Below are positions 54,001 through 64,000 of a stretch of DNA of 64,000 nucleotides, piece by piece. The stretch covers positions 246,043 through 310,042 of the forward strand of contig JBNAUL010000001.1 of the NCBI GenBank assembly GCA_049700835.1. The letters run 5' to 3'. Position numbers: made by a program. This stretch comes from Candidatus Woesearchaeota archaeon. GTDB lineage: Archaea; Nanobdellota; Nanobdellia; Woesearchaeales; WAPY01. Each line of letters begins with the position of its first letter. Positions within the stretch are counted from its first letter, which is position 1.

Positions 54001-57000
54001 AGCATCGCTAAAACTCAAAGCATTCTTTCCAATATAATTTTTTAAAACGCTTGCTCTGCAAGCGCTTTCTTTGGCTGATTCGTTGCTCACTTGGCTTAAT
54101 AAACCAGCTATTACAAGAAGGATAAAAATTACGATTAGAACTATTATTATTGCAACTAAAATTCCAATTCCTTTTTTGTTTTTTATCATGCTTGCTCTGT
54201 TGGTTTGTTTTTATTAAAAAATATAATTGTTTTTTTAAGCTTTTCTTTATTTTTCAATGTAGGCATTAATTATTTCTAAAATTATTTATTTTTCAAAATA
54301 CATCTTAGAAAACAAAAAATAATATAAATTTAAGCAATCATTCATTTGAGATGCTCCAAAATTCAAATTTAAAAAATTTTTCTGGTTCAAAAAAAAAGAA
54401 ATTTATATTCATATCAGGAGGAGTAATAAGCGGAGTTGGAAAAGGGGTTGCAACTGCTTCTATAGCAAAGATAATGAAAGAATTTGGATTCAAAGCAACA
54501 TGCATAAAAATAGACCCATACATAAATGTTGATGCAGGGACTTTAAGGCCAACAGAGCATGGAGAGGTGTGGGTTACTTTTGATGGAGGAGAAACAGACC
54601 AGGACTTAGGAAACTATGAGAGATTCACGCACCAAAACCTTCCAAAGAAAAACAACATAACAACAGGGCAAATCTATGAAGAACTTATAAGGAAGGAACG
54701 CTCTGGTTTATTTCTTGGAAAAACAGTTCAGATAATTCCTCATTTTATTGACGAGGTAAAGAAAAGGATTTTAGATGCAGGTAAGGACTTTGAAATTATT
54801 TTGGTTGAAATAGGAGGTACTGTAGGTGATTATGAAAACATGCCATTCCTTTTTGCAGCAAAGAGTTTGGAAAAGGACTTTGGAAAGGAAAACATAGTTT
54901 ATGTTTTAGTAAGTTACCTGCCAACTCCAGGCAATATTGGGGAGATGAAGACAAAACCAACTCAGCAGGCAATAAAGATGCTTTCAGAGACAGGAATATA
55001 TCCTGACATTGTTATTGCAAGAGCAGCAGAGCCATTAGATGATGTAAGAAAAGAGAAAATAGAGAGGTATGCAAACATAAACAAGGAATTCATAATATCA
55101 GCACCTGATGTTGATAACATCTATTTTATTCCTCTTAATTTTGAAAGAGAAATGCTTGGAGCGAAGATCCTTAAAAGATTGAACTTAAAACCAAGAAAGA
55201 GGGCTAATTGGAGTGCGTGGAAAAGGAGTGCGGAGTTAATAGAAAAATCAGATAGAGTTGCAAAAATAGCAATCGTAGGAAAATACTTTAAGATAGGAAA
55301 TTACAACCTAAAGGACTCGTACATTTCTGTTATTGAATCGTTAAAGCATGCTGCTGCTTATTTAGGAGCAAGGGTCTGCATTGAAGAAGTTTCTTCTCAG
55401 GATTTAGAAAGCAATGAAATAAAACTTGAAGATATTCTAAGCAGGTTTGACGGTGTGCTTATTCCAGGAGGATTTGGAAGCCAGGGTGTTTCTGGAAAGA
55501 TAAATGCAATAAGATATGCAAGGGAAAATAGAAAGCCGTTTTTAGGGCTCTGCTTTGGAATGCAATTGGCAATCATAGAATTCTGCAGGAATGTTTTAGG
55601 AATGCGCGATGCTGATAGCGTTGAAATAAATCCAAGAACAGAAAATCCTGTCATAACGATACTTCCTGAACAGCAAGAATTGTTGAAGAATAATGCTTAC
55701 GGAGCGACGATGAGGTTAGGGGGTTATGCAGCGGTTCTTGATAGAGAAAGCATCGTGTACATGCTTTACAAGGAGTTTGGGAGAATAAAAAATGATATGA
55801 AAACAATTGAATTTTATCTGAAAGACAAAGATTTAAGGTTCAGGGTTGGTTATATTCCTAAAAATTCTGAAGCGGTTCTTGAAAGGCATAGGCACAGGTA
55901 TGAGGTAAATCCAAAATATGTTGAACTCTTAGAGAAGAATGGAGTAAGAATAAGCGGCTGTCACTTTATTGACCAAAGAAAAAAGCTTGTTGAGTTTATT
56001 GAATTGAAAGAACATCCATTCTTTGTTGCAACTCAATCACATCCAGAATTCAGTTCAAAATTCTTAAGTCCTTCTCCTTTATTTGTAGGTTTTTTAAGGG
56101 CTTGCTTGAGTTCAAATGGTAAGAATATTTGAAAGCATGTTTTTTACTATAATCACTAGTACAAATATTAGGAGCAGAGTTAGAATTATTATGATCAGTT
56201 GCTTCATGGCCATGCTCAAACTATAACCTCAATTAATATAAAAATCTAACTGTTATTTCTTTACTCTTTTTTACTTAAACATTCTTGCAGCGCAAAAATA
56301 AGACAATTTTATGACAAAAGTAATACAAATATAATACAAATAAATTACAAAAACAAAAAACTGATGAAATTCTTTTGAAAAACACTCAAAAGAGAAAACT
56401 TTATATATCAGTAAATAAACAAATGTCTTACAAATGAATTACAATTATGTATTTAGTATACTAATCTAACAAAAGACAAACAAGCAAGCAGGTGATTTTT
56501 TGAGGAAGAAGAGGAAAGAGGATGCGGAAATTCTTAACATAAGGCTGCCTTCAAACATAATTTCTTGGATCGATTCCCAAATAAAGAACAACGCATATAG
56601 AACAAGGTCTGAAGCAGTAAGAGAACTTCTAAGGGAATTCATTTTTTCTTATTCCAAAAATCAGGAAAAAGAAGACAAGGGTGATGAACAATAGCAGAAA
56701 GAATAGTGAGCATAAGGATTCCAAAATCAATGATGCAGGAATTGAGGAAAATAGCAGAAAGGGAACACTACATGGACCTTAGCGAAGCAGTAAGGAGTTT
56801 TTTAAGGAAGAAGATGCTTGAAAGCTCAAGCAGGAAGAATTCTGTTAATTTAGAAATAAAGGATTATTTAGGGAGAATACTTGAGAAGAAAATAAGCGAA
56901 GAGAACAAAAAATTGCTGATAGAGCAATTAAGGATAATAGAAGAATTGCTTGAAAATAACAATCTTTCAAAAAAATAAAATAATAAAAATAGAATGATAA

Positions 57001-63000: not shown

Positions 63001-64000
63001 GCAGTAAAAGAATAACAATTACAATAGATAAAAATCTGCTTAATTTTTTGGATCACCTTATTTCTAAGAGAATTTTTGCCAATAGGAGTCATGCTTTTGA
63101 ATTTTTAATAAGAAAGAGAACAGAATTTGAGAATGAAAGAGAGAATTACTATTACCTTAAATGAGGAACTGCTGGACTGGATAGATAACAAAATTAAGAA
63201 GAGAATTTTTGCCAATAGGAGTCATGCTTTTGAATTTTTAATAGCAAGATTGATGGAAAACAACAAGCTTCAGAGCGAAGATGAAAACAAGAGATAAAAC
63301 CAAAGATTTAGGAAAAGGGAAAAACTTGAAAAATCTTAAAAAGCATTTTGACGAAGGCGGATTTAGGGCAACATTTTATGCCTTGCTGGCAGCAATACTT
63401 GCAATCCTTGCAATAATTGTTCTCATACATATTAAGAATTACATTGGATATATGGCACTTCAAACAAGAGCAGGTTCAATCTCTGAATTGAAGATTGACC
63501 TACGATTGCCAGCATCGATATGGAGCGGATTTTACGGTTTAGGGCTAATGGTTCCTGGATATACAGAACAACAACTTGATGTTGCAATTGGCAATACAAT
63601 TAAGAACAAGCACTTGGTTTTTGACTGCTTGAAATACGATGAAGAAAATCCTCCTGAAATTTATGCTTCAACCTCTCCTGTCATTCTCTGGGAAACACTA
63701 AGCCCAGCAACAACAGACATGGTTGACAATTACTTGGAAGTAAGCCCTGATTACATAATGTCAGGCACAAATACCTTCACAACGACTATGACAATAAGAT
63801 TAGGAGATAGAAACATAACAAACATTCCAGCAACACATACTAAAAAATTTGGAGCTCCTGACAGCATGCTCTTTGACATTGGAGTTTTGAGAGACGCAAA
63901 CAACAACTTAGTTTTTGTAACTCATGTTACAGACTATGTCAGGGGCTTTAACAACGAACTTGTAAACTATCAAATGCTACTTCCTGTAAAATCAGATACG

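Follow-up and report, generated by a model that had tools for sequence, protein, structure and literature searches.

HerA itself, represented by the proteins of S. solfataricus (4d2i) and T. kodakarensis (9x1m), is a soluble ATPase with a HAS barrel at its N-terminus and NurA as its partner. FtsK/SpoIIIE, TrwB/TraD and VirB4/TraC are membrane-anchored ring ATPases of the same superfamily, and the FtsK-like EssC/EccC ATPases translocate protein in type VII secretion. In the Sulfolobales, CedB and CedD are paralogous HerA-clade ATPases with a transmembrane (TM) tether that are required for DNA import and act jointly at cell-cell contacts; in the accounts cited, their VirB4-NTD-like domain is cytoplasmic, they lack a large ectodomain, and they work with a polytopic CedA/CedE channel and the CedA1 pilus (PMC11868833; PMC9905601). 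Because CedB and CedD, as these accounts describe them, were already known to be TM-anchored, the novelty that an initial annotation of the present locus claimed for membrane HerA motors is weaker than stated.

Strand asymmetry through deamination of single-stranded DNA is familiar from the G+T-rich mitochondrial heavy strand and from leading-strand skew, where it is genome-wide and modest. A local case is provided by the vls cassettes of Borrelia, surface-protein cassettes in an AT-rich genome, in which silent copies feed one expression site. As far as the cited account goes, these cassettes have a GC content of 49% against 28.6% for the genome, a coding-strand GC skew of 0.52, an AT skew close to zero and runs of G that suit G4 formation, and its authors link the composition to gene conversion (PMC11499132).

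Here we describe a pair of ATPase genes in a 64,000-nucleotide stretch (the window) of a contig from a tiny hot-spring archaeon of the Woesearchaeota. It is near certain that both encode type-I membrane proteins in which extracellular Ig-like beta-sandwiches and one TM helix are followed by a cytoplasmic HerA-clade P-loop ATPase, and equally so that a 1.2-kb motor module has been kept nearly identical in this lineage at a stable compositional extreme. This identical keto-codon cassette, which the initial annotation missed, is the most unusual property of the locus.

Organization of the locus

The cluster opens with two ribbon-helix-helix (RHH)-like ORFs on the forward strand, of 64 aa (56500-56694) and 90 aa (56706-56978), followed by the gene for a 1035-aa surface protein (56994-60101, +). 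The stop of that gene overlaps the start of the gene for the 800-aa ATPase (g00307; 60098-62500, +). In the composition profile an AT-rich spacer with a GC content of 19-21% (62501-62909) lies between the first ATPase gene and a third RHH-like ORF of 84 aa (62910-63164, +), which precedes the gene for the 1266-aa paralogue (g00310; 63281 onward, +). Only the first 240 codons of the latter (63281-64000) lie in the window, and the gene continues to contig position 313123. The two ATPase ORFs, the surface protein and the RHH-like genes ahead of both ATPase genes had all been named in the initial annotation and are borne out, the RHH assignments at scores under the Pfam cut-off.

All three RHH-like ORFs score 17.5-18.6 bits against the RHH_1 cut-off of 20.5; the 64-aa ORF matches at E 0.004 (17.5 bits), the 90-aa ORF at 0.0018 and the 84-aa ORF at 0.0019. 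NCBIfam models lend further N-terminal matches, again below cut-offs: NikR (5.4e-7) and ParD (3.6e-6) for the 64-aa ORF, CdrS (2.6e-5) for the 90-aa ORF and NikR (2.3e-7) for the 84-aa ORF. Related locus L027 has an RHH pair at the position equivalent to 56500-56978, and L022, L024 and L025 have one or two such ORFs at that equivalent to 62910-63164; none was seen by eye, rather than by profile search, beside the ATPase genes at six loci of ordinary relatives. These neighbours may be plain regulators.

The 1035-aa protein contains an N-terminal hydrophobic signal (hydrophobic segment aa 14-39), PKD/PEGA-like domains (Pfam PKD, 3.8e-7) and, towards the C-terminus, a TM segment at aa 881-914, beyond which about 120 aa form a helical cytoplasmic tail. 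Counterparts of 1007-1197 aa occupy the equivalent position in L024 and L027. Both ATPase genes belong to an island, about 40 kb long, whose genes encode surface proteins (1035, 1368, 2203, 2887 and 668 aa).

Architecture of the two ATPases

The 800-aa protein consists of a signal/anchor (aa 11-40), two beta-sandwiches (38-254), a TM helix (268-295), a RecA-like HerA-clade ATPase (314-576), a helical domain (588-707) and a C-terminal DUF5752-like domain (717-799). This order comes from an AlphaFold2 model built from 49 sequences (mean pLDDT 81.9) and reproduces the one proposed before. In the 1266-aa protein a signal/anchor is followed by about 500 aa with two CarboxypepD_reg domains, two membrane-proximal beta-sandwiches the same as those of the 800-aa protein, the TM helix and an ATPase cassette identical to that of the shorter protein. 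In both proteins a K/E-rich linker leads from the helical domain to the DUF5752-like tail. A hydrophobicity scan finds two hydrophobic segments in each ATPase protein; in the 800-aa protein it places the TM segment, N-terminal to the ATPase, at 260-286. The TM segments of the ATPase proteins are followed by RYRVFRRSRLRY. DUF5752 matches the 800-aa protein at E 0.0013, below its cut-off, and is matched weakly seven times genome-wide, four of these matches reaching the cut-off once adjacent stretches are included.

The assignment of the motor domain draws on several searches. Pfam DUF87 (PF01935; 4e-12 for the 800-aa protein) scores 47.1 bits in the 800-aa and 46.2 bits in the 1266-aa protein against a cut-off of 23.2, and the earlier placement of DUF87, HerA_C and FtsK_SpoIIIE at aa 317-415 and 741-839, respectively, and of the CarboxypepD_reg pair on the longer protein, was recovered. 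The Walker A and B residues G342, T344, G345, G347 and K348, and D471, E472 and H474, are invariant in the 49 sequences. In a PDB profile search all seven matches at E<=0.01 are HerA family members, and the best is again S. solfataricus HerA 4d2i (2.7e-9). Foldseek likewise returns the HerA structures found before, 4d2i (1e-11), 9x1m and 8xav/8xau, at E 1e-11 to 4e-10, with TM-scores of only 0.24-0.41 for the multi-domain model. Two further DUF87 proteins in the genome are both soluble.

The likeness to HerA is one of sequence, fold and RecA-like core with its helical insertion, whereas the place of the barrel is taken here by the TM helix. In the AlphaFold2 model a HAS barrel is absent: the TM helix and the Walker A strand lie only about 40 residues apart, with two short strands (314-320, 326-330) in between. 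The genome's single NurA match (C1:154953-155714) is some 150 kb away, and none was found among the cluster proteins, unlike HerA proper, whose gene adjoins nurA (and mre11/rad50). Other identities fared no better. The CedD model NF053655 reaches 26.4 bits against a cut-off of 600, over aa 331-379 only, and the NCBIfam models for type IV coupling protein TraD and for TraC reach 20.5 bits against 366 and 28.5 bits against 567. FtsK_SpoIIIE (PF01580) passes its cut-off (27.6 bits against 24) over aa 317-356 only, corresponding to profile positions 22-60 of 221. Matches to these membrane-anchored ring ATPases are weak, at P-loop level, and cover just 40-50 residues or so around Walker A; a multi-pass anchor, a gamma domain and type IV secretion partners, which FtsK/SpoIIIE or its relatives would bring, are absent, and there is a single TM helix. 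Compared with CedB and CedD as described (PMC11868833; PMC9905601), the TM tether and the occurrence of two paralogues are shared, whereas here a large ectodomain precedes the TM helix.

Distribution of the family

A search at E<=1e-3 yields 718 proteins, named DUF87/HerA-like and falling into two length classes, from Woesearchaeota, Pacearchaeota and Nanoarchaeota; strong matches occur in 11 of 40 relatives searched. It is near certain that the family is widespread in Woesearchaeota-type DPANN archaea, usually as a tandem pair of a short (about 800 aa) and a long (about 1260 aa) protein, and that in some genomes the ATPase module ends giant adhesin-like ORFs. The report of very long open frames ending in this module holds, the longest found now being 11,836 aa. 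In a phylogenetic tree, short and long paralogues pair by genome within the clade with shifted codon usage (see below); outside it, most group with others of their length class. Compositional attraction could have contributed to the monophyly of the shifted clade.

A nearly identical cassette with T- and G-ending codons

The initial annotation gave the two proteins as 64-73% identical in their C-halves. The lower figure is what BLASTP reports overall (513/801, 64%), but it is misleading: residues 281-690 are 100% identical and the flanks only about 25-30%. At the DNA level the shared region is a cassette of 1246 bp (60933-62178, +), 99.84% identical to C1:311430-312675, with just two mismatches, both at its 5' edge; it encodes the end of the TM helix, the ATPase and the helical domain. 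Tandem copies at L022 are 99.36% identical over 1245 bp, and the copies at L024 and L025 99.2% over 1121 bp. In ordinary relatives all five of five tandem pairs stand at 72-83% nucleotide and 65-79% amino acid identity, with normal codons. Mosaic blocks of this kind distort identity figures, trees and dN/dS.

The keto-codon (NNK) part of the cassette spans approximately 60947-62155. Third positions of the 414 cassette codons are T277, G129, A7 and C1; within the core all but one of 403 codons end in T or G. The cassette uses essentially one codon per amino acid (V GTT 57/57, G GGT 44/45, L TTG 46/49, E GAG 29/32), and six-fold families are split (Arg AGG 28 and CGT 24; Ser TCT 14 and AGT 10). 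Base counts of the 1209-nt core are T527, G418, A170 and C94, for a GC skew of +0.63 and an AT skew of -0.51. GC content is 42.3% against 32% for the genome, with sharp edges. The background T/G-ending share, taken over 12,993 windows, is 0.488 (sd 0.091; 99th percentile 0.73). Related loci in other assemblies and metagenomes show shares of 0.98-0.99 in seven of seven cases, down to 72% protein identity, and ordinary relatives 0.33-0.62 (n=10). Block limits are conserved over the same range, down to 72% identity. The cassette has 21 runs of G3-4 and no G4 motif. On the opposite strand a 421-aa open frame (60935-62200, -) coincides with it; its low-complexity T/N/Q/P/K translation does not represent a gene, and the frame is a by-product of the A+C-rich minus strand, open because that strand has few T and hence few stops.

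Shifted blocks of 0.3-1.8 kb are also carried by several unrelated surface-protein genes, and a second cassette family follows the same lineage pattern. The blocks begin and end inside genes, at the limits of paralogue homology. A strongly shifted block at C3:113913-115749 has no second copy in the assembly. In one mirror block the coding strand favours codons ending in A or C; the bias is therefore not simply tied to the sense strand. A 981-bp repeat pair, 99.6% identical, has just 0.58 G+T on the coding strand, so not every near-identical repeat is shifted. These last three cases, the single-copy block, the mirror block and the unshifted pair, count against the keto drive proposed below.

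In a comparison of this genome (G000) with its congener, the ectodomain has 102 identical, 103 synonymous and 43 non-synonymous codons of 248, and the cassette 376, 12 and 16 of 404. Seven of the twelve synonymous changes in the cassette are multi-base swaps between allowed codons (five AGG<->CGT, one TCT<->AGT and one CTT>TTG). At 72-75% amino acid identity, conserved Arg sites keep the same Arg codon in just 14/33 to 20/31 cases. Residue counts have moved as well, with K falling from 44.7 to 11 and I from 32.6 to 7, and R rising from 20.6 to 52 and V from 24.3 to 57. It is near certain that the coding strand has lost A and C as far as the protein allows, through T/G-ending codons and through K>R and I>V replacements. 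Deamination by itself would yield transitions; against it stand the four-fold sites, which are nearly all T rather than a T/G mix, and the transversions among the replacements (Y>F, Q>E, P>A).

Origin of the cassette and its composition

The two copies have very probably been homogenised by concerted evolution, with ongoing gene conversion acting over the stretch in which they can still be aligned. Recombination would in turn drive the keto bias by one of two routes. Either one strand, repeatedly exposed as single-stranded DNA in a hot habitat, would be depleted of amino bases (C>T, A>G, purine>T), or DNA rich in G and T would be favoured as better at recombining, as has been proposed for the vls cassettes. 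We lean, by a little, towards such a recombination-linked origin. A loss of C and A from one strand has the same direction as the known deamination asymmetries, but the bias here takes the form of sharp-edged blocks and is saturated at synonymous sites. The vls cassettes, as described (PMC11499132), resemble this one in their raised G+C and very strong coding-strand GC skew, but both copies here are complete ORFs that stay identical rather than diversify, and the strong negative AT skew and missing G4 motif set them apart.

Other explanations can be weighed against this one. Repeats of 1.2 kb are not fully resolvable in short-read assemblies, the identity of copies could be raised by polishing, and the contigs of relatives do break or switch at the cassette (contig edges in G001; L021 and L027 have a fused form). 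It is nevertheless extremely improbable that the cassette, or its identity between genes, arose as an assembly or polishing artefact: keto codons are present in eight assemblies from several projects, Logan contigs from two other studies align exactly over 60938-62142, those of one study with 0 differences (X2) across the neighbourhoods of both junctions, and in three assemblies 2, 7 and 8 bases distinguish the copies, which were therefore resolved. If instead the bias were selected at the level of RNA or translation, through a restricted tRNA subset, avoidance of A- or C-specific ribonucleases or an unstructured template strand, copy identity would be a side effect. The codon-exact rule, in which six-fold families alone are split, fits this idea, as does the retention of the bias over saturated synonymous divergence, and for the antisense strand almost no structure is predicted (-4.8 kcal/mol per 100 nt, others about -15 to -24). 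The sense RNA, though, at -20.1 is no less structured than its neighbours, no other ORF in the genome comes near the cassette's T/G-ending share, including those that must be highly expressed, and the block edges inside genes and the mirror block with its opposite preference also count against such selection, which we regard as rather improbable. The tRNA census, which is incomplete, found 29. Import from an extremely skewed element, such as a thermophilic single-stranded DNA replicon, with later in-frame recombination into host genes, would account for the sharp edges, the GC contrast and the presence of blocks in unrelated surface-protein genes. We think it more improbable still; ordinary relatives have an orthologous module at the same position and between the same flanking domains, the block limits are conserved in divergent homologs, no close relative turned up in the viral collection with the query used, and no reverse transcriptase was found in the genome.

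The recombination-linked reading can be extended, tentatively and with rather more doubt than belief, to an undescribed local, strand-specific "keto drive" in hot-spring Woesearchaeota, by which frequently gene-converted surface-gene segments lose A and C from one strand. Such a drive would fix one T/G-ending codon per amino acid, remodel the protein (K>R, I>V) and persist while synonymous divergence elsewhere saturates. The HerA cassette would then be a conserved recombination handle for swapping ectodomains and tails, its identity allowing mixed motor rings.

Possible functions

The initial annotation read these proteins as membrane-set HerA pumps forming a contact-dependent conduit. One part of this stands, namely a HerA-clade P-loop ATPase behind a single TM helix and extracellular beta-sandwiches, fused to very large surface proteins in relatives; the conduit found no support, and the cluster has no channel partner. 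Among eight cluster proteins, searches with Pfam, NCBIfam and PADLOC found no polytopic membrane protein, CedA/VirB6-like channel, pilin, relaxase or nuclease, and each of the cluster proteins scanned has at most two hydrophobic segments. CedB and CedD, by the accounts cited above, do have such a channel and pilus. A pore wide enough for DNA is unlikely to be built from a single TM helix per subunit, and the conduit reading of the pair is speculation. With CedB/CedD as the nearest working analogue, the motor would form a ring under the membrane and do ATP-driven work on a polymer, DNA or protein, at sites of binding between the ectodomains and a partner surface; since the two proteins share an identical module, rings of mixed composition, with two kinds of ectodomain, would be possible. 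Polymer translocation at contact sites is a possibility that we rate as doubtful. The whole package, in which gene conversion homogenises a pair of membrane-tethered ring motors and a keto drive acts on one strand, we consider plausible, with belief falling slightly short of doubt.

The motor might instead serve the adhesins, as a membrane-tethered ring that exports, assembles, tensions or extracts the large surface proteins nearby and so translocates protein rather than DNA, as EssC and EccC do. The setting in a surface-protein island, the position of the module at the C-terminus of the giant proteins themselves in relatives and the lack of a DNA-processing gene in the cluster are in keeping with this. 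All sequence and fold matches, however, are to DNA-handling HerA proteins, no EssC-type match appears in Pfam or NCBIfam at E<=0.001, and the neighbours have N-terminal hydrophobic signals of their own, which makes Sec export simpler; we take this role to be unlikely. A defence or sensing device, in which a membrane HerA scaffold is triggered by virus or foreign cell bound to the ectodomains, as in HerA-Sir2 or HerA-DUF4297, seems improbable. PADLOC models do match (mad8 at 3.6e-14, several HerA models down to 1.5e-9), and the PDB and Foldseek matches include the anti-phage HerA complexes 8xau, 9c1m, 8wiv and 8sub, but these cover the P-loop core only. None of the effectors Sir2, nuclease or DUF4297 was found among the eight cluster proteins scanned, and very wide conservation in tandem pairs beside adhesins is unlike the patchiness of defence islands.

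Significance

The cassette shows that both the codon usage and the amino acid usage of a conserved enzyme can be overridden, within a natural genome, by a force that acts locally, fixing one codon per residue over 1.2 kb and keeping it so across deep divergence. It bears on the interplay of gene conversion, high-temperature damage to single-stranded DNA and base composition. The nearest precedent, the GC skew of the Borrelia vls cassettes, is itself unexplained as far as the cited account goes (PMC11499132); a second, independent and more extreme case, from an archaeon, makes the question testable by comparison. Through the ATPase pair, a very common and unstudied DPANN family couples a surface-binding part to an internal HerA-type motor by way of a single membrane helix, and provides a defined protein to purify and to seek in tomograms. 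If active at host contact sites, it would be a candidate route by which genome-poor symbionts acquire DNA or other polymers.

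A shared cassette in the two ATPase genes

The source genome (1.07 Mb in 4 contigs, GC 32%, 98.7% complete; window C1:246043-310042) carries the locus on the plus strand. ORF calling gives two small RHH-like ORFs (56500-56694 and 56706-56978), a 1035-aa surface protein recognized by Pfam PKD (56994-60101), and the 800-aa short ATPase (60098-62500), whose start overlaps the stop of the preceding gene. A 409-bp spacer of about 20% GC separates it from an 84-aa RHH-like ORF (62910-63164), followed from 63281 by the long ATPase, which has its first 240 codons inside the window, runs past the window end, and totals 1266 aa in the genome. 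The RHH_1 matches of the three small ORFs in Pfam (17.5-18.6 bits against a cut-off of 20.5) and their matches to the RHH N-termini of the NikR, CdrS and ParD models are all below cut-off, so "RHH-like" is the fair wording. The 1035-aa protein ends in a transmembrane segment (residues 881-914) followed by some 120 residues of helical cytoplasmic tail, which perhaps contacts the motor. Its gene overlaps that of the short ATPase by 4 nt, which suggests co-translation.

The two ATPases were first described as 64-73% identical in their C-halves. BLASTP does align them at 513/801 (64%), but the figure hides a mosaic: residues 281-690 of the short protein are identical to residues 705-1114 of the long one, while ectodomains and tails are weakly similar. 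In DNA, C1:306975-308220 (window 60933-62178) matches C1:311430-312675 at 99.84% over 1246 bp; there are two mismatches, both at the 5' edge, and the flanking DNA cannot be aligned. We refer to this motor module as the cassette. In loci L027 and L021 (the congener and one metagenome contig), the N-half of the short paralogue and the tail of the long one are fused in a single gene of 853-861 aa, with the genes between them absent. This may reflect real recombination across cassettes or an assembler switching copies; because a second contig of the congener's genome breaks at the cassette, its fused gene is not taken as evidence.

The cassette is set apart by composition. Over 60900-62149, 150-nt windows show GC skew of +0.42 to +0.84, AT skew of -0.35 to -0.61, and GC of 39-46%. 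Upstream, GC skew ranges from -0.26 to +0.38, and AT skew is mainly above zero (+0.02 to +0.30, with exceptions of -0.095 and -0.086); downstream, GC skew declines over about 400 nt (+0.50 to +0.22) and AT skew is positive immediately. A 1209-nt core contains 527 T, 418 G, 170 A and 94 C, and all but one of its 403 in-frame codons end in T or G. The genome background for this share, sampled from 12,993 sixty-codon windows in all ORFs of at least 150 aa, averages 0.488 ± 0.091 (99th percentile 0.73). Essentially a single codon serves each amino acid: GTT for Val (57/57), GGT for Gly (44/45), TTG for Leu (46/49), TTT for Phe (32/32), GAT for Asp (26/26), GAG for Glu (29/32) and AAG for Lys (10/12). 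Arg (AGG 28, CGT 24) and Ser (TCT 14, AGT 10) alone are split. A 421-aa antisense ORF (60935-62200) was rejected as a gene, being a by-product of the T-poor minus strand. Directly 3' of the cassettes (window 62156-62250; C1:312648-312891) the coding strand becomes A-rich, encoding a K/E-rich linker with G+T of about 0.31; this skew, opposite to that of the cassette, may reflect linker composition or a strand switch at a break site.

The cassette in other assemblies

The cassette is real and old. Contig pieces from X2, a sequencing run of a different study, match the locus with 0 differences, and two further studies provide contigs whose alignment spans exactly 60938-62142; these show 26-27 differences, among them several paired changes (AGG to CGT, CGT to AGG, or CTT to TTG). 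Pieces of this variant occur in an RNA library, which is no proof of transcription. Runs X3, X5 and X10 cover parts of the stretch partially, and a contig gap there proves nothing. In 7/7 loci from other assemblies, namely six metagenome contigs and one named Woesearchaeota MAG with the module at 72-97% protein identity, the T/G-ending share is 0.98-0.99 and the block limits are unchanged. Ten ordinary relatives, family members with normal codons at 39-56% identity, have shares of 0.33-0.62. Codon comparisons across relatives cover homologues of two cassettes, the motor module and a 747-bp repeat described below.

The shift extends to the encoded protein. From ordinary relatives to the cassette, residue counts fall for Lys (44.7 to 11), Ile (32.6 to 7) and Thr (18.4 to 7), and rise for Arg (20.6 to 52), Val (24.3 to 57) and Gly (25.2 to 45). 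K>R is the most frequent replacement (17), ahead of I>V (13), Y>F (4), Q>E (3) and P>A (3). A and C have therefore been lost at codon positions 1 and 2 as well, through the conservative routes available.

In the comparison with the congener, the 248 aligned ectodomain codons include 102 identical, 103 synonymous and 43 non-synonymous, from which synonymous sites there are close to saturation; the 404 cassette codons include 376 identical, 12 synonymous and 16 non-synonymous. The 12 synonymous cassette changes comprise five AGG<->CGT, one TCT<->AGT (three bases), one CTT>TTG, one GAA>GAG, and four at the 3' edge, and replacements also arrive at the "allowed" codon of the new residue (e.g. TTG>GTT, CGT>AAG, GGT>TCT). 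We read this codon pattern as evidence for a standing constraint rather than a recent transfer. Members with 72-75% protein identity still share 85-92% of their codons at conserved residues other than Arg and Ser; codon agreement at conserved Arg sites is 14/33 to 20/31, about the chance expectation. In these more distant members, four-fold Val and Gly codons take T as well as G (GTT 25, GTG 19), so what is conserved is the exclusion of A and C from the third position, and the use of T alone is peculiar to this genus.

Probable concerted evolution and other shifted blocks

In the two other populations for which both tandem genes are available, the modules are again nearly identical in DNA, at 99.36% for L022 (1245 bp) and 99.2% for L024 against L025 (1121 bp). 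In ordinary relatives, the modules of five tandem pairs show 72-83% identity in DNA and 65-79% in protein. We built a FastTree phylogeny from 391 columns and 53 sequences, consisting of all recognized shifted modules (those with the T/G-ending habit) together with 22 from each length class, the first in order of identifier, other listed proteins being omitted. The 10 shifted modules fall together in a single long-branched clade, and within it the short and long paralogues of a genome pair with each other; outside it, grouping is mostly by length class. Compositional attraction may aid the shifted clade.

Two further repeats have T/G-ending codons, and all copies lie inside large surface-protein ORFs. 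One is a 747-bp pair at 99.87% identity (C1:327260-328006 and C1:341156-341902) in ORFs of 2891 aa and 685 aa, encoding repeats with an FVVGW-type motif; its T/G-ending share is 0.94 in the congener and 0.50-0.52 in two distant homologues. The other is a 261-bp pair at 99.2% (C1:204795-205055 and C1:206850-207110), both copies within one 1512-aa Ig/PKD/cadherin-like ORF. Several blocks count against a simple rule tying repeats to bias. The codon shift is mild in a 981-bp pair at 99.6%. The 1.8-kb block C3:113913-115749, at a contig end, is strongly shifted and single-copy in the assembly. In C2:317994-321206, a mirror case, a 1071-aa ORF with Cu_amine_oxidN1 domains prefers A/C-ending codons over codons 44-687 (AAC 65, AAT 9; ATA 45, ATT 6; GAA 68, GAG 0), and its T/G-ending share falls to 0.05 in a 60-codon window. 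The C3 block and C2:1-544, at a contig start, are the longest keto-codon (T/G-ending) blocks after the ATPase cassette (G+T 0.78 and 0.70) and sit in Cys/Gly/Val-rich surface-protein ORFs; both contain exact 55-nt overlaps with the ends of other contigs, and hence branch points of the assembly graph. In a membrane protein resembling PMT_2 glycosyltransferases, encoded by a single-copy gene (C1:26038-27675, minus strand), the T/G-ending share is up to 0.95 over roughly 100-250 codons, which may be the same bias or an effect of hydrophobic composition.

Architecture and distribution of the ATPase family

The DUF87, HerA_C and FtsK_SpoIIIE domains originally reported on the short ATPase, and DUF87 on the long one, are found by Pfam at the same residues: aa 317-415 of the short protein (4e-12, 5.5e-7 and 2.4e-6, respectively) and aa 741-839 of the long protein (7.6e-12), which also carries two CarboxypepD_reg domains. 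DUF5752 matches of both C-terminal domains are weak (E 0.0013 and 0.0003, below cut-off). Hydrophobic segments occur at aa 11-40 and 260-286 of the short protein and aa 27-60 and 681-710 of the long one, the second being followed by RYRVFRRSRLRY. By hydrophobicity and charge alone, this fits a putative type-I arrangement, outside-N and inside-C.

An AlphaFold2 model of the 800-aa protein (49 family sequences, mean pLDDT 81.9) has a helix at 14-29, beta-sandwiches at 38-254, a long helix at 268-295, a RecA-like domain at 314-576, a helical domain at 588-707, and a small C-terminal domain at 717-799. Foldseek against PDB places HerA on top (4d2i 1e-11, 9x1m 1.1e-11, 8xav/8xau about 3e-10), and the ectodomain matches tandem Ig-like proteins such as RbmA, transglutaminase C-domains and WxLIP. 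At E<=0.01 the family profile finds seven chains among PDB sequences, every one a HerA-family protein, with 4d2i the best (2.7e-9). Walker A residues G342, T344, G345, G347 and K348 and Walker B residues D471 and E472 are invariant in the 49 sequences. Since only about 40 residues separate the transmembrane helix from the Walker A strand in the model, the HAS barrel of true HerA is missing.

A search of 5.8 billion proteins gave 718 matches at E<=1e-3 among proteins of 440-1400 aa. Named entries are labelled "DUF87" or "HerA-like" and come from Candidatus Woesearchaeota, Pacearchaeota or Nanoarchaeota, and the family is annotated as nothing more specific. Two length classes are seen, about 800 aa and about 1250-1350 aa, the latter with CarboxypepD_reg domains. 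Among relatives of the same order, 22/40 have some match to the module and 11/40 a strong one (E<1e-80), and open frames containing it reach 11,836 aa. Within the shifted clade, gene order is conserved: two RHH genes, a surface protein of about 1000-1200 aa, the short ATPase, one or two RHH genes, the long ATPase, a DUF5752-like protein of about 200 aa, a coiled-coil protein of 300-430 aa, then further giant surface proteins. At this locus the DUF5752-like protein has 184 aa and the coiled-coil protein 311 aa. No RHH-like small ORF was seen adjoining the ATPase genes in six ordinary-relative loci inspected by eye rather than by profile. Elsewhere, far from the locus, the genome has one NurA gene and two DUF87 genes of the ordinary soluble kind. 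Our literature search found no description of the ATPase family or of T/G-ending codon blocks, and the accessible portion of a paper on DPANN nanotubes (PMC11329633) makes no mention of ATPase, HerA or FtsK.

Function of the ATPase pair

Domain order, HerA-clade membership, conservation and neighbourhood of the ATPase proteins are thus established. Among working systems, CedB/CedD comes closest: these two TM-anchored paralogues of the HerA clade are required for DNA import in Sulfolobales (PMC9905601, PMC11868833). Membrane-anchored motors of this clade are therefore known, and the ATPase protein is a variant on a known theme. The pair does not belong to the Ced system: it scores 26 bits against the CedD model, where the cut-off is 600, and, unlike Ced, lacks a VirB4-like N-domain, with no CedA-type channel in the cluster.

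Our reading is that the protein works as a membrane-tethered ring motor linked to the binding of surfaces, and because the module is identical in both proteins, the two can probably form mixed rings. Such a motor might translocate a polymer at contact sites, a role that we favour only tentatively. The membrane conduit of the initial annotation is not in evidence, domain scans and hydrophobicity of the cluster proteins revealing no polytopic membrane protein, pilin, nuclease or relaxase. Adhesin assembly by the motor ranks below translocation and seems rather unlikely, and a defence scaffold lower still, as a distinctly improbable role.

Origin of the codon bias

Several explanations of the bias were rejected. 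A retroelement or DGR origin finds no RVT_1 match in the 98.7% complete genome, and for a viral carrier, a single-protein query of a viral contig collection found no close relative. Unstructured mRNA fails in that the sense strand, at -20.1 kcal/mol per 100 nt, folds like its neighbours, and the antisense alone is structure-free. For G-quadruplexes, there are 21 G3-4 runs and zero G4 motifs. The supply of tRNAs is a separate candidate, for which ARAGORN lists only 29 tRNAs, a clearly incomplete census.

The bases lost, A and C, are the two whose amino groups are easily deaminated, suggesting that one strand is damaged while kept single-stranded in a hot habitat. Deamination alone does not account for four-fold sites that carry only T, or for the transversional replacements. 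RecA and Rad51 prefer GT-rich DNA.

The nearest documented case is the vls locus of Borrelia. Its conversion cassettes have GC of 49% against 28.6% for the genome, with coding-strand GC skew of 0.52, and this composition is considered important for conversion by the authors (PMC11499132). We therefore read the ATPase cassette as a conversion tract, with limits set by the extent of paralogue homology, on which a recombination-linked keto drive, a strand-specific loss of A and C either mutational or selective, would act. The composition of the cassette goes well beyond the vls precedent, and is a more surprising result than the protein itself.
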